A stretch of 64,000 nucleotides of DNA, from the NCBI GenBank assembly GCA_001244265.2, contig LN717261.1:1131591-1195590 (forward strand). Direction: 5' to 3'. The position numbers were made by a program, and so were the translations under genes. Positions 2,691-63,581 of the stretch are shown piece by piece; the stretch's first letter is position 1; the number at the start of each line of letters is the position of its first letter. The DNA comes from Microbotryum violaceum. Taxonomy: Eukaryota. The notes beneath the pieces are model-generated. The model was given only the letters and a program-made list of their open reading frames with translations. It made no database searches and had not been told where the DNA came from.

Positions 2691-3089
2691 TATTCGATCA
2701 ACTCTACTACGTCAGCGATGTAGTTATAGCCAAGAGTGATGAATCATTACAACATACCTATTCGATCAACTCTACTACGTCAGCAATGTAGTTATAGCAA
2801 GAGTGATATAGGAAGCTAACAACAAGAGAGCGCCGCGCCTCACATCCTCAGGCTGCGAACCTTGGGGCTGAGCCAATGGCCCAGGCTCGCCCTGCGCGCC
2901 TAAGTCCTGGGGCTGTGTGCGCCTGGCTCGCTCCGCGCGCCTAAGTCCTGAGCCAATGCGCCTGGCTTGTTCTGCGCGCCTAAGTCCTGGGCCGGTGCGC
3001 AGGCGAGCGCGCGCCTAAGTCCTGGGCCGGTGCGCCAGGCTCGCTCTGTGCGCCTAAGTCCTGAGCGAGCGGAGAGTGGATTCCTCACA
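2691..3089 (-). repeat. Solo LTR, family B, with one extra U5 unit and five CCTAAGTCCTG repeats
   Basis: Termini match other B LTRs; flanks are unrelated, no TSD. Confidence 0.9.
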
Positions 3090-4557: not shown

Positions 4558-6560
4558 TGTGATGATGTCACGCCTGCTCAAGCGGTGGTAAGTCTCTGAT
4601 CAAAGGACCAAGGGAGACCAGACCAAGAAGTTGCTTGTTACACACCTGCTCAAGCACTACCGTAAGTTACCACATCTAGAGGGGTGAAAGATAATAGGAA
4701 GAGTAGTGCTCACCTGCTCAAGCGTGGTAAGTCTCTGATCAAAGGACCAAGGGAGACCAGACCAAGAAGTTGCTTGAGCAGAGAGAAACCAGAGAGGGGC
4801 CAGCTGGCTGGGCCTAAGTGCCCAGCCAGAGTCAGGCGCACGGACCTGGCCAGAGTGGGAGAGCTAGAGTGGTGAAAAGTAGGCCAAAAGTGATCAAAAT
4901 GAAGAGAGGAGGATGTTGAGGTAGATGCAAGATACAAGAAGGACATGAAGGAGATATTTGATCTCACACCCCCCCTACTTCGAGTATCAGGGAGCACAGA
5001 TACCGAGTCGACTGCGGTGCCGAGCAAAGAGGTCGCGTGACAATGCTTTGGTGAAGATGTCCGCTGTCATCTCACCAGTGTTGATGTACTGGACGACAAT
5101 ATCGCCCATGGAAACCATATCCCGGACGAAGTGTTCGCGCAGGCGGATGTGCCGAGTCCGAGCATGAAATACCGGATTCTTGGTGAGAGCTTTGGCACCT
5201 TGGTTGTCGCCGTAGATGAGGACGGGCTTTGAAGACGAAAGGCCAAGCTCACCAAAGAGCTGACGCAGAAAGATTGCCTCCTTACCAGCGTGTGACAGTG
5301 CGAGGTACTCGGCGTCACAAGTGGAGTCGGCAACGCGCGATTGGAGCGCGGAGGACCATGAGACGGCAGCACCTGCATAGACAAAAGTGTAACCCATGGT
5401 CGACTTGGAAGAGAGGACGCATGCACCCCAGTTGCAGTCGGAGTAGCCCAAGAGCGGTGCCGGATCCCCACAAGTGTAGCGTAAGCCGTGAGGAAGAGTG
5501 CCAGCGATGTAACGGAAGGCGTGCTTGACAGTCCCCAGGCAGCAGCAGAAGGCGAGTGAGAGAAGCGAGCCAAGTAACCGACGGTGTAAGCCAGGTCGGG
5601 CTGAGTACCAGTGGATGCATACATGAGGGAGCCAATGGCTTGCAGGTACGAGTGCGATCCGGAAAAGGGGTGGGCTGGAGCTCGACTTCAAGGCGGAGAT
5701 CAGACTGCATGGGAGTCGCGACCGGATGGGCGTTGGACATGCCAAATCGAGCAAGGACGTCCTTGAGGTACTGCTCCTGACTCAGGGAGATGGAGCCGTC
5801 TGGAGAACGCCGGATCTGAATGCCGAGGACGTATTCCGCCTCACCAAGCCGTTTGACACCATAGCGCCGCTCAAGCCCTGAAGGGTACGCTCAATCTCGG
5901 GGAGAGAGGGGCTGATCATGAGCAGGTCGTCGACATAGAGCGCAATGTAGTGGCGCACATTGCCCGTTGTCCTGACGTAGACGCAGTGGTCGGATTCGGT
6001 GGCAACATAGCCAAGTGCGGACAAGGCAGAGTCAATCTCGTCGTTCCAGATGCGACCAGCCTGGCGCAAGCCGTAGAGGACCGATGCAGTTGGAGACCTT
6101 GCCTGGCATGTAGATGCCATCAGGTACACGAATGTACAGGGGTGCATCGAGTTTGCCGTGCAGGTAGGCTTTGTCAATGTCGGCCTGGTGGACGTGGTAC
6201 CCATGAGCAGCAGCAAGAGCCAGGAGTGCGCGGATGGAGGTGAATTTGGCCACGGGTGCGAAGGTCTCGTCAAAGTCGATGCCAGAGCGTTGGGAGTCAC
6301 CACGAGCAACGAGACGGCCCTTGTAGGACTTGACTTGGCCATGCTGGTCGCGTTTGGTGCGGAAGACAAAGCGGGAGCCCAGGACCTTGGCGTCTGCTGG
6401 GACAAGGGACTCGTCAATTGGTGTGAACGCCGAAAAATCTTGCAAGAGTGAGTCAAACTCGTCGCGGGCCACAAGACGCCATTCATCCGCTTGAGGGTGG
6501 CCATGGCCGCCCGCCAGTGAGGTGGGTCGCGAGCGGGGGCAATTAGTTCCGCAGGGTCGG
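4558..6560 (-). mobile_element. Family C 3' half: 3' LTR (4558-4968, two intron-like inserts), PPT, RNase H/RT
   Basis: G-run PPT at 4969-4975; YSDCNW and ALYVDD motifs; homologous to 19236-21130. Confidence 0.92.
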
Positions 6561-8813
<2,253 letters not shown>

Positions 8814-9872
8814 TGTAAGAGTTACAACTCTTTGTATTTCCTTCTCACACTGTCTCACCCTTTCTCTGCCTTATTCTTTCTGTGATTTTTGGCCTTTCCC
8901 TTCACCCTGCTCTCCCATCTCTGGGCTGGGTCTGTGCACCTGCATCAAGCGCACGGACCAAGCCATGCTCTGCCTGGCTCCCTCTATCTTCAGGCGGGTC
9001 CGTGCGCTTAACACTGGGGCACGGACCTGGTTGCGCACTACCCAGCCAACTGGCTCCGCGCTTCTCTCTCTCCTGCTCAAGCAACTTCATTGGTCTGGTC
9101 TCCTTGGTCCGTTGATCAGAGACTCACCACCGCTTGAGCAGGTGTGTGCAAAGCAACTTCATTGGTCTGGTCTCCTTGGTCCGTGTTATCAGAGACTCAC
9201 CACCGCTTGAGCAGTTGTGCGCATCATAGGTTATAAGCCCCAACAAGCTACCAGCGCGGTCACCTCCGTCCCGCCCTCGTCATTTTTTTTTTCGCGCTTC
9301 GCACGGCTCAGCCCCTCCCACACTTCGCACGCCCGGCATGTCTGACTCCGACGTCCCCAAGCCCACAACGCTCACATTCCCCCACCGCGCCCGCCTACAC
9401 AAATTACAGCCTTTGCTGCTTCGGACCTTCTGCGCGACGCAGATGGCTACAGGACTGGGTTCTTACCCTATGCTCCGCATGCCATCGACGTAATCGATAT
9501 ATCTAAAGTCCGGCGTCCCTCCTACGTCCTGGCCAACCGCTTATGTACCTTTGTGGGACCATTACGCTCGAGCCTCGATCTGCGCTGCCGTCGACCCCCG
9601 TCTGGTCCTCCCGGTCTCTCCCAGTACTTTGGCGACACTCACAGCGGTCACAAGATTTGGGCAGCTCTGCGCACGCGATACGGCGCTGTCTCGGCTGTCG
9701 ACCTTCTTCCCGTCATCTCTCGACTCTTCAGTCCCGACCTTATGCCGATCCGCGCGACGCATTCCTTCAGTTCCGCGACCGTTTCGAGAACGACTCCCGA
9801 CTTCTAAAACGACTCCGACGTGACAACCGACTCCCTCCTAGCGTCGCACTTACTTGCTCGGATGCCTCCCTC
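8814..9872 (+). mobile_element. Family E (C-related) 5' end: LTR 8814-9228 (TG...TA), PBS 9229-9240, degenerate gag from about 9338
   Basis: U5 shares the AAGCAACTTC...CGCTTGAGCAG unit with LTR-C; PBS GGTTATAAGCCC; gag WDHYARASICAAVD is similar to C gag. Confidence 0.85.
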
Positions 9873-15414
<5,542 letters not shown>

Positions 15415-15812: not shown

Positions 15813-16041
15813 TGTGAGGAATCCACTCTCTGCTCGGCTCAGGACTTAGGCGCGCGGATCGAGCCAGGCGCACCGGCCCAGGGCTTAGGCGCGCGGAGGG
15901 AGCTGGGCGCATTGGCTCAGGACTTAGACGCGCGGAGCGAGCCTGGGAAACTTGGGGGCGCGAGGCTCTCACACTGTTAGCTTCCTATTCATCACTCTTG
16001 GCTAGAACTACATCGCTGATGTAGTAGAGTTGATCGAATAG

Positions 16042-16110
16042 GTATGTTGTAATGCATTCATCACTCTTGGCTAGAACTACATCGCTGACGTAGTAGAGTT
16101 GATCGAATAG
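16042..16110 (+). other. Putative 69-nt spliceosomal intron duplicating the LTR-B terminus
   Basis: AG|GTATGT...GCTGAC...GAATAG|GTTAT; removal regenerates the single-unit LTR-PBS junction seen at 34625. Confidence 0.65.
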
Positions 16111-18802: not shown

Positions 18803-19548
18803 ATACCAGCCCCTCGTCGTCTCCGTTGCTCGCCCCGATTTCGTCTCCCGCCATGTCCTCAGGGCGGGGACCATCCTTCGAGGACTCGGATGATCCGCTT
18901 GACCTTCTGCACTCCGACACCGCGGTTCGCCTCCGCCTGATGGACGTACATCGATCCGACAACGACACCCTGGTCACACCCACACTCGCCGTTGGCCCCG
19001 GGCAGCCCTCCGACGACGACTCCCCTGATGAGATCGATTTCCTCTCTCGTCATCACCGCGCCTTCATCGCCACCGACGACGACGACCCTACCCTCGAAGC
19101 CATTGAGCCGGTCAAATCGATCACTAGCGACCCTCAGACCTGGCGTGAAGCGATGTCCAGCGACGAGCACGACCTCTGGGCTCAAGCTGCCTCCGACGAG
19201 TTCACCGCCATGCGCAACGATTTCAAGGTGTTCACTGTGATGTTGTCACGCCTGCTCAAGCGGTGGTAAGTCTCTGATCGAAGGACCAAGGGAGACCAGA
19301 CCAAGAAGTTGCTTGAGCAGGAGAGAAACCAGAGTGGGGCCATTTGGCTGGGCCCAAGTCAGCCCAGCCAAAGTCAGGCGCACGGACCTGGCCCAGGTGC
19401 AGAGACCAGGCCCAGAGTGGGAGAGCTAAGGTGGTGAAAAGTAGGCCAAAAGTGATCAAAACGAAGAGAGGAGGATGTTGAGGTAGGTACAAGATACAAG
19501 AAGGACATGAAGGAGATATTTGATCTCACACCCCCCCTACTTTGAGTA

Positions 19549-23863: not shown

Positions 23864-23956
23864 GTTGCGAAGGGTGAAAAAGTAGAGCGAAGGGCGGGCA
23901 CGGAGGTGGCCGCACTGGTAGCTTGGTTGGGCTAATAACCTGTGATGTTGTCACGC

Positions 23957-24166
23957 CTGCTCAAGCGGTGGTAAGTCTCTGATCGAAGGACCAAGGGAGA
24001 CCAGACCAAGAAGTTGCTTGTTACACACCTGCTCAAGCGTGGTAAGTCTCTGATCGAAGGACCAAGGGGGACCAGACCAAGAAGTTGCTTTTTACACACC
24101 TGCTCAAGCACTACAGTAAGTTACCACATCTAGAGGGTGAAAGATGATAGGAAGAGTAGTGCTCAC
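23957..24166 (-). repeat. Three back-to-back intron-like units (67, 71, 72 nt) in LTR-C U5
   Basis: CAG|GTGAGC...CAG|GTGTGT...CAG|GTGTGT...CAG; 210 nt equals the length difference between the two LTRs (505 vs 295). Confidence 0.8.
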
Positions 24167-25661
24167 CTGCTCAAGCGGTGGTAAGTCTCTGATCGAAGGA
24201 CCAAGGGAGACCAGACCAAGAAGTTGCTTGAGCAGGAGAGAAACCAGAGTGGGGCCATTTGGCTGGGCCCAAGTCAGCCCAGCCAAAGTCAGGCGCACGG
24301 ACCTGGCCCAGGTGCAGAGACCAGGCCCAGAGTGGGAGAGCTAAGGTGGTGAAAAGTAGGCCAAAAGTGATCAAAACGAAGAGAGGAGGATGTTGAGGTA
24401 GGTACAAGATACAAGAAGGACATGAAGGAGATATTTGATCTCACAGTTTCCCGGTCAAGGACGGAGTGGGAAATGACAGGACATCGCTGTGCACGAGACC
24501 AAGTCTCTCGGGGGAATGTGACTCCGAGTCGGGAAAAGGAAGACGATGGCCTTTGGAACCAAGGCAAGCATTGCAAACAAACTCTTCTACGTCTTTGTCA
24601 CTGTACCCGGCCCAAACCCGTCCAGCAAACCCGCAGCGATCATCTTCTGTATAGAGGATGGAGCAAGGTGGCCGAGGCAGCGGTGGAGGGTAAGTAGGGG
24701 CACGGTAGACTCAGAGCGTGAGAGGAAGGCAAGCTGCTGACATTTGGTGTGGTCCGCGTCCAGGAGGTAGAGACCGTCGTTAACCCGTGTACCGTGAGCG
24801 ATGGCCTGGCCGTCCTTGGTGATGTCGATGCCATCGCTGGTGAAGGCAAGCCGAACGCGGTCGTGTCACAAAGGCGAGAGACGGAGAGAAGGTTGACGTG
24901 AAGGCCCGGCGCATGCAGAACGCCGCGCAACGTGATTGGGTGTCCGGTGTTGGCAACAAACGGTACATCCCCCATGCCAATGGCCGTGATACCGCCGGCA
25001 ATGCCGCCAATCTTGGTGTGTGCCGTTGGACGATAAGTTGTGAACAGGGAGCGGTCGGCGACCATGTGAGTCGTGGTGCCCGAGTCGACGACGAAGGTGT
25101 CGGTCGGAGATGGTGGCGAGCGAGTAGGCAGGAGGCGAAATAGCCGACATTCGGTTGTTGAGCCGCCGATGAGGGTGTGTTGTCCTGGTTGTCGTCGCCG
25201 GTTCGTTTTTGGTCGCCTCGCGGTTTGCAGTCAAGGGCCCAGTGACCCTTCTTGTGGCAGCGACGGCAGGGGCCGGTGGGGGGGTGTTGAGCGCGTGAGG
25301 TGCAGTCACGAAGGCGGTGACCGGGGGCGCGGCAGGCGGGGCATAGGGATGTGAAGAGTCCACTCTCAGCTCGACAGAGGCGCCTCGATTGTCGCGCGCA
25401 CCCGCTAGCCCGCCCCCTTGCGGTGGAGACTTAGGTGCGCGCGACTGCCTCAGCAAGCAGGCGCCAGCGGACTCGGCGCGCGCCCGCTAGGCCGCCCCTT
25501 GAGGTGGCGACTTAGACGCGCACAGCTGCCTCGGCTCCCCAGCAAGTTCACCCGCGGCTGGGCCTATCCAGTGCGGGCCCCCTTTCTGTTTCTTAGCTTC
25601 CCTCTCACCACTTCTGTTCAACAATCAACCTCTCCTGACAGTAGTGGTGATTGTCTCATAG

Positions 25662-25868
25662 GTATGCTGAAATAGACCACTTCTGTTCAACAATCAACCT
25701 CTCCTGACAGTAGTGGTGATTGTCTCATAGGTATGCTGAAATAGACCACTTCTGTTCAACAATCAACCTCTCCTGACAGTAGTGGTGATTGTCTCATAGG
25801 TATGCTGAAATAGACCACTTCTGCTCAACAATCAACCTCTCCTGACAGTAGTGGTGATTGTCTCATAG
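25662..25868 (+). repeat. Three tandem 69-nt intron-like units at the LTR-A/PBS junction
   Basis: Each reads GTATGCTGAAATAG...CCTGAC...CTCATAG (25662-25730, 25731-25799, 25800-25868). Confidence 0.85.
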
Positions 25869-25896
25869 GTTATTCGCCCATCGACCTACTGCTGGC

Positions 25897-30399
<4,503 letters not shown>

Positions 30400-31822
30400 T
30401 GTGAAGAGTCCACTCTCAGCTCGACAGAGGCGCCTCGATCGTCGCGCGCACCCGCTAGCCCGCCCCCTTGCGGTGGGTACTTAGGCGCGCGCGACTGCCT
30501 CAGCAAGCAGGCGCCAGCGGACTCGGGCGCGCGCCTGCTAGGCCGCCCCTTGAGGTGGCAACTTAGACGCGCGCAGCTGCCTCGGCTCCCCAGCAAGTTC
30601 AACCGCGGCTGGGCCTATCCCAGTGCGGGCCCCCTTTCTGTTTCTTAGCTTCCCTCTCACCACTTCTGTTCAACAATCAACCTCTCCTGACAGTAGTGGT
30701 GATTGTCTCATAAGGGAGGCGGTAGCGAGCATGGCCGAGTGCGAGGTGGAGAGTCCCGCCGAGCGAAGTTGGACGCGAATGCGGTCGTCAGCGTCGTCAG
30801 CTCGGGAAGGTCGCGTTGGTGGCGTTGCTCGTCCGTGAACGTGAGTCGGAAGCTGTTGAGGCACAATGGGACCATGGCAAGCACGTGAGTGGCGAGTACG
30901 TCGTTGAGCAAAGTTTTGGCGTCGCGAATTTCTTGTACGATGGACATGTACTCGCGCAGCCAGTTGTCGTATGCCTCGACGGAGGCAGGCATCTTCCTGA
31001 AATCCCAAAGGCGGCGAACAACTCGAGGGTGCGGGTAGCATCGTCCGGTGCAAAACGAGCCTTGAGAGCGGTGAAGATGCGCGTGCTGAGAGATCGTCAC
31101 TGGGAATGGCGTCGAGCGTGGCCGAGACGTCCGCGGAGTCGATAGAGCCAACGATGAGTTCCCGGGCGGCGTTGTCACGGCGGCAAGCTGATCGGCCGTC
31201 CAAGTAGCAGGAACGATACCTTCGAGGACGTAAGCACGGACTTGATTCGGGAGCGCAAGACGGAGTTGACGCAACCAGTTGGTGAACAATTTGGGACCGT
31301 CGAGGCGAGCGTGTTTGGGAAACACGACTTTGGCTGAGGTAGCGGCGTTGGTCTGCGTGGCGGGGGCGGCCGGAAGTGGGGGCAGCGGTGGCGGAGACTG
31401 CAAGGCCTGCAGGGCAGCGAGCTGTGCCTGTAGAGTTGCAATTTGTGCGGCGATCGAGGATTCAGGGGGGCTGGGAGAATCCTTGGGGGGCGAGGGCGGT
31501 GCGGGAGCGGGAGAGTCGCCCATGGTGCAAAGGGATGTGTGCGGTCGAGTGGCTAAGCTCGAGGAAAAAACGCAAGGCGGCGAGGCTGGTAGCTCGTGGG
31601 CGGATAACCTATTTGATCAACTCTACTACGTCAGCGATGTAGTTCTAGCCAAGAGTGATGAATAGGAAGCTAACAACAAGAGAGCCACGCGCCTCAAGTC
31701 AGTGTGAGAGCCGCGCGCCCCAAGTTTCCCAGGCTCGCTCTGTGCGCCTAGCCCTGGGCCGATGCGCCTGGCTCGCTCCGCGCGCCTAAGTCCTGAGCCG
31801 AGCGGAGAGTGGATTCCTCACA

Positions 31823-34295: not shown

Positions 34296-35203
34296 TGTGA
34301 GGAATCCACTCTCCGCTCGGCTCAGGACTTAGGCGCGCAGAGCGAGCCTGGCGCACCGGCCCAGGACTTAGCGCGCGCTCGCTTGGCGCACCGGCCCAGG
34401 ACTTAGGCGCGCGGACAAGCCAGGCGCATTGGCTCAGGACTTAGGCGCGCGGAGCGAGCCAGGGCACACAGCCCCAGGACTTAGGCGCGCAGGGCAGCCT
34501 GGCCATTGGCTCAGCCCCAAGGTTCGCAGCCTGAGGACGTGAGGCGCGCGGCTCTCTTGTTGTAGCTTCCTATTCATCACTCTTGGCTATAACTACATCG
34601 CTGACGTAGTAGAGTTGATCGAATAGGTTATCAGCCCACGAGCTACCAGCCTCGCGCCTTGCGTTTTTCCTGAGCTTAGCCACTCGACCGCACACATCCC
34701 TTTGCACCATGGGCGACTCTCCGCTCCCGCACCGCCCTCGCCCCCAAGGATTCTCCCAGCCCCCTGAATCCTCGATCGCCGCACAATTGCAACTCTACAG
34801 GCACAGCTCGCTGCCCTCCAGGCCTCGCAGTCTCCCGCCACCGCTGCCCCCGCACTCCGCCGCGCCCGCCACGCAGACCAATGCCGCTACCTCAGCCAAA
34901 GTCGTGTTTCCCAAACACGCTCGCCTCAACGGTCCAAATCGTTCACCAACTGTTGCGTCAACTCCGTCTTGCGCTCCCGAATCAAGTCCGTGCTTATGTC
35001 CTCGAAGGTGTTGTTCCCCCTACTTGGACGCCGATCAGCTTGCCGCCCGTGACGACGCCGCCCGGGAACTCATCGTTGGCTCTATCAACTCCGCGACGTC
35101 TCGCGCCACGCTCGACGCCATTCCCAGTGACGATCTCTCAGCACCGCGCATCTTCACCGCTCTCAAGGCTCGCTTTGCACTGGACGATGCTACCCGCACC
35201 CTC
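34296..35203 (+). mobile_element. Family B 5' end (LTR 34296-34625, PBS GGTTATCAGCCC, gag from 34709)
   Basis: Reverse-complement match to 53506-54287. Confidence 0.9.
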
Positions 35204-37321
35204 TATTCGATCAACTCTACTACGTCAGCGATGTAGTTATAGCCAAGAGTGATGAATCCATTACAACATACCTATTCGATCAACTCTACTACGTCAGCAA
35301 TGTAGTTATAGCCAAGAGTGATGAATAGGAAGCTAACAACAAGAGAGCCGCGCGCCTCAAGTCAGTGTGAGAGCCGCGCGCCCCCAAGTTTCCCAGGCTC
35401 GCTCTGCGCCGCCTAGCCCTGGGCCGATGCGCCTGGCTCGCTCCGCGCGCCTAAGTCCTGAGCCGAGCGGAGAGTGGATTTCTCACACCCCCCCCCCCAC
35501 GCGAACGCAAGGTAGACTTGAGCCGTGGTGACGCGTCCGGAGGCCTAGAGCATAGCAATGTACACCAAAAATCTTGGGACCTAGCGCCTTGGTGAATATG
35601 TCCGCAACCATGTTCGCTGTGCCGACGTGTGAGAGGGAGATATCGCCTTGGTGGACCATGTCGCGCGACAAAGTGCTTGCGGAGGCGTATGTGTCGGGTG
35701 CCAGAGGTGTGAACGGGGTCGTGAGCGACGGCGGCCGCGCGCCTTGTTGTCCGTGAAAATGTGAGCCGCATCGACCGGGCAAACGTGGAGCTCGGAGAGG
35801 AGTTGTGTAAGGTAAATCGCTTCCTTACCAGCATGCGACAAGGTGAGGTATTCGGCATCAGTGGTGGAATCTGCTACCCGAGTCTGACGCTTTGATGACA
35901 AGAACGGCGGAGCGCGGCAAGTAAAAGACGAAGCCCATTGTGGAGATTGACGTGTCAACGCAGGCACCCCAGTTTGCATCGGAATAGCCAACCACCCCTG
36001 TAATCTTGGTTGGACCGCAGGCGTAGAGTAGCTCATCACGGTATCTAGCGCGAGAGTAGCGAAGGACGTGTTTGACGGCGACCCAATGGCGGCGGCGGGG
36101 TTGTTGGCGAACCGGGACAGGTACGAGACGGCGAAGGCAATGTCGGGGCAAGTGCCGAGTGAAATGTATAGGAGGGAGCCGATGGCTTGCAGGTACCACG
36201 ACCAAATGCGTTCCGTTCCCTGACCCGGTACTGCCGTGAGCGAGAGGCCAGGCGTCATTGGCACCGTAGCGCCGCGCGTTGTGGTGTCGAAGTGAAAGCG
36301 GCGCGAGCACGTCCATGATGTAGCGCTCCTGAGATAAAGCAATGGAGCCGTCTTCCAGGCGTCGAATCTGGATGCCGAGGATGTATTCTGCAGGGCCGAG
36401 TCGTTTGACGCCGTATCGCTGTTCGAGGCCGGAGATGACACGCTCAATCTCGTTGAGGGCGGGCTGACAATGAGGGGATCGTCGACATATAATGCGATAT
36501 AATGGGGCCGCTTCTGATCATCAATGCGAGAGTAAATGCAGTGATCAGTGCCCGTTGCCGTGTACCCAAGACTCCTGAGCAATGTGTCAATGTGGCGATT
36601 CCAGATGCGACCGGCCTGCTTAAGACCGTAGATCGAGCGCCGCAGCCGAGAACCTGGTCGCTCAGGAAGTCGAAACCTCGTGGCGTTGTCATCCAGATGT
36701 CGTGATCGAGCTCGCCGTGAAGGTAAGCCTTGTCGATGTCAGCCTGATGAACGTGATAGCCGTTGGCAGCAGCAAGGGCGAGGAGGCAGCAAATGGAGGA
36801 GAAACGGGCGACAGGTGCGAACGTCTCCGAGAAGTCAATGCCGTCGCGCTGGCGGTTACCCTGCGCGACAAGGCGTGCCTTCGCCCTGTGATATCACCCT
36901 GTGCATTGCGCTTGGTCTTCCAGACGAATTTGGAGGTGACGATGGTGGCGCCCAGTGGTACCGAGGAACGAGGCTCGATGGTGAGCACCTTGAAATCGTT
37001 GCGCATGGCGGTGAACTCGTCGGAGGCGGCGTGAGCCCAGAGGTCGTGCTCGTCGCTGGACATCGCTTCACGCCAGGTCTGAGGGTCGCTAGTGATCGAT
37101 TTGACCGGCTCAATGGCTTCGAGGGTGGGGTCGTCGTCGTCGGTGGCGATGAAGGCGCGGTGATGACGAGAGAGGAAATCGATCTCATCAGGGGAGTCGT
37201 CGTTGGAGGGCTGCCCGGGGCCAACGGCGCGTGTGGGTGTGACCAGGGTGTCGTCGTCGGATCGATGTACATCCATCAGGCGGAGGCGAACCGCGGTGTC
37301 GGAGTGCAGAAGGTTAAGCGA
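35204..37321 (-). mobile_element. Family B 3' half (LTR 35204-35487 with extra unit, RNase H, RT, linker)
   Basis: PPT C-run on + from 35488; [14 protein letters not shown]. Confidence 0.9.
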
Positions 37322-37728
37322 TATAAGACGATCACCACAACTGTCAGGAGAGGTTGAGAGTCGAACAGCAGTGATGAAAAGGAAGCTAAGAAACAAAAGG
37401 GGGGCCCGCGCTGGGATATGTGAAGAGTCCACTCTCAGCTCAACAGAGGCGCCTCGATCGTCGCGCGCACCCGCTAGCCCGCCCCTTTGCGGTGGGACTT
37501 AGGCGCGCGCGACTGCCTCAGTGAGCAGGCGCCAGCGGACTCGGCGCGCGCCCGCTAGGCCGCCCCTTGAGGTGGCGACTTAGACGCGCGCAGCTGCCTC
37601 AGCGCCCTAGCGATTTCACCCGCCGCTGGGCCTATCCCAGCGCGGCCCCCTTTCTGTTTCTTAGCTTCCCTCTCACCACTTCTGTTCAACAATCAACCTC
37701 TCCTGACAGTAGTGGTGATTGTCTTATA
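37322..37728. repeat. LTR-A2 piece (37322-37418, -) joined to a solo LTR-A (37419-37728, +)
   Basis: A complete TG...TA LTR sits between two minus-strand LTR-A pieces. Confidence 0.85.
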
Positions 37729-48661
<10,933 letters not shown>

Positions 48662-48816: not shown

Positions 48817-53505
<4,689 letters not shown>

Positions 53506-54287
53506 GTCCGCGGAGTCGATAGAGCCAACGATGAGTTCCCGGGCGGCGTCGTCACGGGCGGCAAGCTGATCGGCCGTCCAAGTAGCGGGAACGACACCTT
53601 TGAGGACATAAGCACGGACTTGATTCGGGAGCGCAAGACGGAGTTGACGCAACCAGTTGGTGAACGATTTGGGACCGTTGAGGCGAGCGTGTTTGGGAAA
53701 CACGACTTTGGCTGAGGTAGCGGTGTTGGTCTGCGTGGCGGGGGCGGCCGGGAGTGCGGGGGCAGCGGTGGCGGGAGAGTGCAAGGCCTGCAGGGCAGCG
53801 AGCTGTGCCTGTAGAGTTGCAATTTGTGCGGCGATCGAGGATTCAGGGGGGCTGGGAGAATCCTTGGGGGCGAGGGCGGTGCGGGAGCGGGAGAGTCGCC
53901 CATGGTGCAAAGGGATGTGTGCGGTCGAGTGGCTAAGCTCGAGGAAAAACGCAAGGCGGCGAGGCTGGTAGCTCGTGGGCTGATAACCTATTCGATCAAC
54001 TCTACTACGTCAGCGATGTAGTTATAGCCAAGAGTGATGAATAGGAAGCTAACAACAAGAGAGCCGCGCGCCTCAAGTCCTCAGGCTGCAAACCTTGGGG
54101 CTGAGCCAATGGCCCAGGCTCGCCCTGCGCGCCTAAGTCCTGGGGCTGTGTGCGCCTGGCTCGCTCCGCGCGCCTAAGTCCTGAGCCAATGCGCCTGGCT
54201 TGTTCGCGCACCTAAGTCCTGGGCCGGTGCGCCAGGCTCGCTCCGCGCGCCTAAGTCCTGAGCCGAGCGGAGAGTGGATTCCTCACA

Positions 54288-54487
54288 GCATTGGCTCAGG
54301 ACTTAGGCGCGCAGAGCGAGCCTGGGAAACTTGGGGGCGCGCGGCTCTCACACTGTTAGCTTCCTATTCATCACTCTTGGCTAGAACTACATCGCTGACG
54401 TAGTAGAGTTGATCGAATAGGTATGTTGTAATGATTCATCACTCTTGGCTAGAACTACATCGCTGACCTAGTAGAGTTGATCGAATA
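54288..54487 (+). repeat. 3' part of an LTR-B with an extra U5 unit
   Basis: Matches 15909-16109; ends GATCGAATA. Confidence 0.88.
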
Positions 54488-63237: not shown

Positions 63238-63581
63238 AGCAGCTGGTAGCTTGTTGGGCTCATAACCTATAAGACGATCACCACAACTGTCAGGAGAGGT
63301 TGAGAGTCAAACAGCAGTGATGAAAAGGAAGCTAAGAAACAAAAGGGGGGCCCGCGCTGGGATAGGCCCAGCCGCGGGTGAAATCGCTGGCGCGCTGAGG
63401 CAGTTGCGCGCGTCTAAGTCCCCGCCACAGGGGGGCGGCTTAGCGGGCGTGCACCCGAATCCGCTGGCGCCGGTGCGCTGAGGCAGTTGCGCGTGTCTAA
63501 GTCCTCACCGCAAGGGGGCGGGCTAGTGGGCTCGCGCAACGACTGATGCGCCCCCGTCGAGCTGAGAGTGGACTCTTCACA
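63238..63581 (-). mobile_element. 5' LTR-A2 (63268-63581) with PBS GGTTATGAGCCC and a short leader
   Basis: The PBS is the exact complement of GGGCTCATAACC. Confidence 0.88.

Follow-up and report, generated by a model that had tools for sequence, protein, structure and literature searches.

Could the spliceosome remove sequence from the very end of a retrotransposon's long terminal repeat (LTR) and leave that end in working order? The question is raised by a Ty1/copia element of Microbotryum violaceum, here family A, that lies in a 64,000-nt stretch of contig LN717261.1 (assembly GCA_001244265.2, positions 1,131,591 to 1,195,590, forward strand; hereafter the window, from whose first letter all positions are counted). 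The 5′ LTR of this element closes with an array of 69-nt units directly ahead of the primer-binding site (PBS). The array is a variable-number tandem repeat within U5; it belongs to the LTR and passes to new copies by reverse transcription. Judged by the sequence motifs it contains, each unit is possibly a facultative short leader intron read by the spliceosome, a reading to which we give somewhat less than an even chance.

A variable tandem repeat at the U5 end

Tandem Repeats Finder places the array at 25607–25870 (period 69, 3.8 copies, 99% matches, score 521). It consists of four copies of a 55-nt LTR-end segment, E, interleaved with three copies of a 14-nt spacer, d (GTATGCTGAAATAG). The LTR proper stops at 25867 (...CTCATA), and the PBS, which runs from 25868, shares its first G with the third unit. 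The repeat search and direct reading agree with the initial annotation, which had seen three 69-nt units between the LTR end and the PBS and only about 14 new nt in each, the rest copying the LTR end. Matches to the motif ATAGGTATGYTGWAATRS with at most two mismatches number 11 in the window against 0.01 expected. The same annotation held that family A copies with zero, one and three units coexist, and a BLAST census bears this out: LTRs at 1318, 30400 and 42385–42700 have no unit, those at 9873 and 14185 have one and that at 25350 has three. Unit number also varies in two further families (0/1 in C and 0/2/3 in B, against 0/1/3 in A), as befits a variable-number tandem repeat.

Of 12 LTRs that adjoin a PBS, 6 carry units, as do 6 of the 16 3′ or solo LTRs that have no PBS next to them, with the fragments 37322–37414 and 37729–37837 and the LTRs of family D excluded from the count. 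Because they also occur in 3′ and solo LTRs, the units are part of the LTR and not merely of the leader. The model first proposed for the array needs unit-bearing RNA to give rise to integrated copies, and these LTRs are exactly such copies.

Unit number is not constant within an insertion. The LTRs at 25350 and 30400 are mutual closest relatives that align with 303 matches, 8 mismatches and 209 gap columns (three units amount to 207 nt), and the insertion they bound, flanked by a matching AGGGA target-site duplication (TSD), carries its three units in the 5′ LTR alone. Hence unit number changes with no splicing involved. In the family B pair 23941/19236, which has no TSD, all 295 of 295 positions agree and a single 210-nt gap is the only difference, again three units versus none. 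Two other pairs have one unit in each LTR, one of them the family C pair 48317–48661/43440–43752 (311 matches, 2 mismatches). In none of the four pairs does the 3′ LTR exceed the 5′ LTR in unit number. Both unequal pairs have their three units in the 5′ LTR, the direction that premature first strand transfer through E homology predicts; with n = 2, this direction may be due to chance.

At four sites where E varies between LTRs (two in family A, two in family C), all E copies within an LTR have the identical state, and the private differences of individual E copies are single changes in older copies; both readings were made by eye. The E copies within an LTR thus evolve in concert. Unit number changes by misalignment between the 55-nt E copies at the level of DNA or cDNA. 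Each of three family C sublineages contains both one-unit and zero-unit LTRs, so that loss has been recurrent.

The element at 25350–30712 is a Ty1/copia retrotransposon of an anther-smut-type fungus. It has direct LTRs with a short TSD, a PBS, a polypurine tract (GCGTGGGGGGGGGGG) that ends at 30399 immediately 5′ of the 3′ LTR, and an integrase ahead of a copia-type reverse transcriptase (Pfam rve at 27352–28173, E 2e-15, and RVT_2 at 28847–29896, E 2e-58). The nearest proteins are Microbotryum copia polyproteins, 94–97% identical, and the list of open reading frames shows the frames of this copy to be broken. By self-BLAST the window contains nested LTR retrotransposons only, with no host gene, and its sole repeat-free stretch is an intact copia element of a different family.

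The family A LTR at 42385–42700 (minus strand) has a polypurine tract upstream and a PBS downstream and is therefore common to two tandem family A elements (element–LTR–element). The LTR ends at 30712 and 9873 (family A) and at 35204 (family C) abut homologous gag positions of other copia elements; the flanks at 30713, 9871 and 35203 read AGGGAGGCGGTAGC, GAGGGAGGCATCC and GAGGGTGCGGGTAGC, all antisense and within 1 nt of one another. This suggests a strong insertion-site preference or a duplicated nested structure. An extra G after the LTR end was considered as a signal linked to the units (5/5 unit-bearing 3′ or solo LTRs versus 2/6 zero-unit LTRs) and was dropped, since target sequence explains it at 35204 and 43439; by flank homology the extra G at 9872 is probably target-derived as well.

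Related and independent units in other families

Family C LTRs (TGTGAGGAATCC...CGAATA, with the PBS GGTTAT[AA/CA/CC]GCCC) are built in the same way, from a 55-nt E and a 14-nt d that match the 55 + 14 = 69 nt of family A. Six family C LTRs carry this module, with d of the form GTATGTTG[A/T]AATG[G/C/A]. Four of their units are 69 nt long and two (2691–3089 on the minus strand and 54288–54487 on the plus strand) are 68 nt, one base short, which shows that unit length is not strictly fixed; in these two, d reads GTATGTTGTAATG and is followed by ATTCATC. Between families A and C, 10 of the 14 columns of d are invariant while roughly half of the E columns differ and U3 is strongly diverged. The homology of d across such divergence shows that the E–d–E module predates the separation of A and C. 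The U3 of family C has a repeat of its own, a variable number of 38–39-nt copies (...GGACTTAGGCGCGCGGAGCGAGCC...) at 2868–3066, 15835–15947, 34318–34514, 48509–48639 and 54101–54264; across these repeats, the alignment of the two LTRs of the element at 43440–48661 contains 32 gap columns.

Families B and B′ have U5 units of 67–73 nt that are derived independently of the A/C module. Read in sense (a slash marks a candidate splice boundary), they start CAG/GTGTGT or CAG/GTGAGC, contain CTTAC or CTCAC and end in CAG, and are followed by a 14–16-nt LTR tail and then the PBS. An 'odd' unit of family B, present in two LTRs, shares with the normal units little beyond GTG..., ACTTAC and GCTTGAGCAG. 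The GTGTGT at unit starts corresponds in the homologous LTR tail to GCGTGA in B and to TTGTGC in B′, with differences at donor positions +1, +2 and +6.

In the element at 25350 the PBS opens with GGTTATTCGCCC, and the pattern GGTTATNNGCCC has 14 matches in the window against 2.16 expected. Twelve of these lie directly 3′ of LTR ends of families A, A2, B, B′ and C, and a 13th (53206–53217, one mismatch) follows a family D LTR end. The PBS starts GGTTAT; in subfamily A2 it takes the form GGTTATGAGCCC, from which the family A form differs at two positions (TC for GA). We take it to be complementary to the stem-loop that holds the anticodon in initiator tRNA-Met; the window itself has no tRNA gene. 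Half-tRNA priming is described for copia and Ty5 (PMC5371799). The PBS here may be of the same type, with the tRNA match presumed and the family A form two bases off that of A2. At 63250–63270 (minus strand), the LTR end and PBS of subfamily A2 make up an inverted repeat (CTTATA GGT TATGAG), so that this U5 end would mimic the anticodon loop with which the PBS is presumed to pair. Family D is represented by an apparently intact copia at 49089–53123 (minus strand) with a single frame of 1344 codons and the PBS GGTTATGAGTCC at 53206–53217; no repeated unit was seen in the 330 nt before that PBS. The coordinates of the principal features are collected in Table 1.

Table 1. Units, LTRs and other parts of the copia elements discussed in the text.
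Feature	Position	Strand	Remarks
Family A Ty1/copia element	25350–30712	+	array sits in its 5′ LTR
TSD AGGGA, 5′ side	25345–25349	+	directly before TGTGAAG
Family A 5′ LTR, TGTGA...CTCATA	25350–25867	+	518 nt including three extra units; from BLAST against the window, 3′ LTR alignment and sequence
E1, 55-nt LTR-end segment (ACCACTT...CTCATAG)	25607–25661	+	starts directly after CT-rich tract; predicted hairpin
Unit 1, d (14 nt) + E copy (55 nt)	25662–25730	+	reads GTATGC...CTGAC...TAG
Unit 2	25731–25799	+	same sequence as unit 1
Unit 3	25800–25868	+	one T>C; final G doubles as first PBS base
PBS GGTTATTCGCCCATCGACC	25868–25886	+	directly after LTR
Internal region	25897–30399	+	putative gag ATG at 25897; degraded gag-protease-integrase-reverse transcriptase frames; polypurine tract at its end
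Family A 3′ LTR, no extra unit	30400–30712	+	closest relative of the 25350 LTR
TSD AGGGA, 3′ side	30713–30717	+	adjoins 3′ LTR end; 5 nt match the 5′ side
Family A 5′ LTR, one extra unit	14185–14566	-	adjoins PBS
Family A 3′ LTR, one extra unit	9873–10191	-	polypurine tract upstream, no PBS
Family C 5′ LTR, one 69-nt unit	48317–48661	-	d = GTATGTTGAAATGG
Family C 3′ LTR, one unit	43440–43752	-	partner of 48317–48661
Family C 5′ LTR, one unit	15813–16109	+	d = GTATGTTGTAATGC
Family B 5′ LTR, three extra units (67, 71 and 72 nt)	23941–24445	-	GTGAGC or GTGTGT...CTTAC...CAG in sense; 16-nt tail; PBS
Family B 3′ LTR, no extra unit	19236–19530	-	otherwise 295/295 identical to the 23941–24445 LTR
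Family B 3′ LTR, two extra units	4558–4968	-	one is the divergent 'odd' unit
Family B′ LTR end, one extra 73-nt unit	9041–9228	+	GTGTGT...CTCAC...CAG; PBS at 9229

Are the units introns?

On the sense strand, the units of families A and C have candidate splice sites at both ends: a 5′ splice site G/GTATGY (GTATGC or GTATGT), a CTGAC branch motif whose A lies 23 or 22 nt from the unit end, and a 3′ splice site TAG/G. Both families pass a strict test that asks for all three signals (GTRNGY, then CTRAY 10–40 nt before the end, then YAG), the consensus being that of other fungi, as the window has no host gene on which to calibrate it. Composition-matched shuffles of the unit contain the strict motif set, in any phase, in 181 of 200,000 cases, and in 767 of 200,000 once GT..AG is given. 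Across both strands of the 14 tandem-repeat rows with a period of at least 36 (28 tests), only the family A array passes, in sense; under a relaxed test the B′ array, also in sense, is the only addition, and a direct scan finds that family B units pass the relaxed test too. In length the units, at 67–73 nt, stand near the median of 65 nt given for 5′ untranslated region (UTR) introns in Cryptococcus (PMC3990503). The splice-like donor, branch and acceptor signals pointed out in the initial annotation are real: they lie on the sense strand, are kept in family C, are paralleled in B and B′ and are rare among shuffles.

The junctions read CATAG/GTATG at unit starts and CATAG/GTTAT at the PBS, as in a tandem duplication across AGGT, and deletion of 69 nt yields the zero-unit junction of the LTRs at 1318, 30400 and 42385; yet 14 of the 69 nt are not duplicated sequence. 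A derivation of d from the PBS was considered and rejected by eye, as only GGT(T)AT is common to the two and d is not a recent PBS copy. Each d holds an ATG with a stop within 2–10 codons (by eye; for example at 25662–25675 and 48371–48384), namely ATG CTG AAA TAG in family A and ATG TTG TAA or a 10-codon frame in family C. These upstream ATGs lie about 100 nt or more before the putative gag ATG at 25897. The predicted start of transcription is where E1 begins, just past the CT-rich stretch.

Several observations weigh against the units being spliced. The initial annotation had stressed that removal of any unit restores the junction of LTR end and PBS. This is true, and it has no evidential weight: a 69-nt deletion in any phase does the same in any 69-nt tandem repeat, so the restoration is arithmetic. 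The AG/GT boundary likewise follows automatically once the terminal A of an LTR is joined to a PBS that starts with GGT. The existence of zero-unit copies can be explained without splicing, as the three-versus-none pairs at 25350/30400 and 23941/19236 show. The branch motifs of B and B′ (CTTAC, CTCAC) satisfy the relaxed consensus and not CTRAY, and extra AGs occur 2–10 nt beyond the branch motif. With 10 of 14 columns invariant, d is not significantly better conserved than E (about 27 of 55, by eye); its conservation also continues beyond the six donor bases into TG.AAT, for which a splice site by itself does not account. Finally, a predicted E hairpin lies immediately 5′ of the donor, and one also encloses the branch motif.

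That hairpin was examined by folding. Single-sequence folds give −19.5 kcal/mol and z −2.5 for E of zero-unit family A, z −1.8 for family C and z −0.9 for A2. In the alignment fold none of the nine pairs shows a compensatory change, which leaves a conserved E structure unsupported.

Contigs were searched at the one-unit locus 13800–14570. Four of 24 listed sequencing runs, none recorded as RNA, were compared there: X6 and X17, chosen as possible RNA runs, and X1 and X4. All their contigs are short, none spans the locus and none skips 69 nt, and their depth is no measure of expression. Copies of d with E letters on both sides occur in X17 record 13 and X6 record 28 (14219–14280; 19 and 29 letters on the two sides) and in X1 records 5 and 6 (28 and 39–42 E letters), all below the 31-letter bar set for bridging. 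As zero-unit copies exist as DNA, a joined form in such contigs cannot distinguish splicing. A metagenome scan with a degenerate d motif gave 118 loci, none of which has a repeated E or a PBS nearby, and all are chance matches.

The array could instead be a minisatellite that is neither spliced nor functional, in which the U5 end was duplicated once, by template switching of reverse transcriptase or by slippage at the hairpin, along with a 14-nt filler, its intron-like look being AGGT plus chance. We consider this unlikely, though a serious contender. Unit number differs between the LTRs of single elements, an instability independent of splicing, and the E copies homogenise as tandem repeats do. 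A mechanical hotspot would fit the shared location of the arrays in three families, just downstream of a CT-rich tract and about a predicted hairpin; the UTRs of plant LTR retrotransposons are known to contain tandem repeats (PMC7004042); and a chance of 0.0009 per array is not overwhelming given some 28 strand tests. What such a minisatellite accounts for poorly is the homology of d in two LTR families whose E and U3 are strongly diverged, an old module that has outlived repeated irreversible loss and so suggests an advantage. Nor does it lead one to expect that every U5 array is intron-like in sense while no other array in the window is so on either strand, or that the differences between B/B′ unit starts and LTR tails land on donor positions. 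A mis-assembly of array length at 25607–25868 is highly improbable. Assemblies are prone to error at tandem repeats, and contigs from other runs do break within E; against this, unit-bearing LTRs are found at 12 places in three families with copy-specific variants, and one unit of this very array has a substitution of its own.

The reach of conservation beyond the donor hexamer (GTATG.TG.AAT) would fit a d that is under selection as a cis signal and not as a splice site, acting in 3′-end formation, as an upstream frame that tunes gag translation, or in packaging, dimerisation or priming, with E as a second U5 hairpin. The ATG and nearby stop in every d agree with this, as does the folding of the E hairpin in families A and C, and UAUGCUG or UAUGUUG resembles the Cryptococcus poly(A) motif AUGHAH (PMC3990503). 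We nevertheless hold such a role to be improbable. No motif test supports it, AUGHAH failing at one position (U for A at position 5); the hairpin has no compensatory pairs and Rfam returns no match. Nor does such a role explain the GTGTGT or GTGAGC at the start of the independent B and B′ units, or the CAG at their end.

Comparison with known systems helps to place the proposal that the units are leader introns. Introns have arisen where a genomic segment spanning AGGT was duplicated in tandem (Hellsten et al. 2011, PMC3265369), with a further case in a potato RdRp gene (PMC4974935). There, as here, a duplicated AG/GT provides donor and acceptor at once and removal returns the unduplicated RNA. 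The present repeat differs in lying in retrotransposon U5 and not in a host exon, in ranging from zero to three units, and in that its splicing is proposed from sequence; with 14 new nt per unit it is also not a pure duplication. Furthermore, the RNA of a retroelement is its genome, so that a spliced form would be inherited, unlike that of a host-exon intron.

Retroviruses have their major splice donor in or near the 5′ leader, and only their unspliced RNA serves as genome. The likeness is a donor near the 5′ end of the genomic RNA and a possible division between spliced message and unspliced genome. Retroviral donors, however, are usually downstream of the PBS and join distant acceptors to give subgenomic mRNAs, whereas here donor and acceptor would be 69 nt apart, upstream of the PBS, and the product a full-length RNA that can be primed. 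Among LTR retrotransposons, Drosophila copia makes a subgenomic RNA. Ogre, EVADE and Cer1 have introns in the internal region that yield subgenomic RNAs (PMC12786077). All of these are LTR elements, some copia-type, that exploit the host spliceosome; unlike the units here, none of the introns of Ogre, EVADE and Cer1 is described, in the cited part of that paper, as residing within U5 or as duplicating the end of the LTR. The arrays of plant Ogre and other elements (PMC7004042) resemble ours in their head-to-tail units that vary in number among copies, but their site is a UTR, 3′ or 5′, beyond the LTR, and no intron-like character is reported for them in the portion of that work cited, whereas ours are in U5 and abut the PBS. 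A literature search whose coverage left out subscription journals found no description of an intron or a tandem repeat at a U5 end, in keeping with the initial annotation, which knew of no account of this architecture; a paper on an Echinococcus TRIM element had no bearing on the question.

Were the units leader introns, the spliceosome would use G/GTATGY as 5′ splice site, CTGAC as branch motif and TAG/G as 3′ splice site. Each unit closes with a duplicate of the LTR end, so splicing would leave a normal U5/PBS junction; it would also delete the upstream AUG of each d, cleaning the leader. The spliced RNA would be a clean gag-pol message that could still be reverse transcribed, giving zero-unit daughter copies; the module itself would reach the next generation through unspliced RNA alone. 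A cap-proximal intron could pay off in a basidiomycete through mRNA accumulation and a reduced feeding of RNA interference (RNAi). In basidiomycetes, transgene expression needs introns (PMC4935854, PMC8379801). Cryptococcus has degenerate splicing signals and an RNAi complex, coupled to the spliceosome, that targets poorly spliced transposon RNA (PMC5851062). RNAi genes are present in Microbotryum (PMC4469406). That the module outlasted the divergence of A and C, although its loss is recurrent and irreversible, is an argument for better replication of unit-bearing copies.

These elements can be combined into a fuller scenario, which as a whole we consider rather unlikely. In it, a tandemly duplicated U5 end, with the AG/GT formed between the A of the LTR end and a half-tRNA PBS (GGT...) as its seed, would act as a 'self-healing' leader intron that recruits the spliceosome near the cap. 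The element might thereby gain mRNA accumulation, export, removal of upstream AUGs and avoidance of spliceosome-coupled RNAi, without losing a U5 that can be primed and integrated. Spliced RNA would serve as message and give rise to poorly expressed intron-less daughters, unspliced RNA would propagate the module, and array size would tune the balance between the two.

Consequences for retrotransposon biology

What is new here is the homologous module of family C, the independent units of B and B′, the presence of units in 3′ and solo LTRs, and the change of unit number without splicing. Even if the units are unspliced, they are a clear case of a conserved U5 module, of concerted evolution, and of unit change between the LTRs of one insertion. 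Such variation in U5 matters for the dating of insertions by LTR divergence and for tools that annotate LTRs.

An ordinary intron of an LTR retrotransposon is normally lost whenever spliced RNA is copied back into DNA, and in U5 such a loss could also strip sequence required for priming and integration. If the units are spliced, they would show how a retroelement retains a leader intron, by building it from a copy of the sequence that it must keep. They would then join three subjects mostly treated apart, intron birth by tandem duplication, the need of basidiomycetes for introns in expression and spliceosome-coupled silencing of transposons, and the arrays would be a natural reporter of how a retroelement divides its RNA between message and genome.

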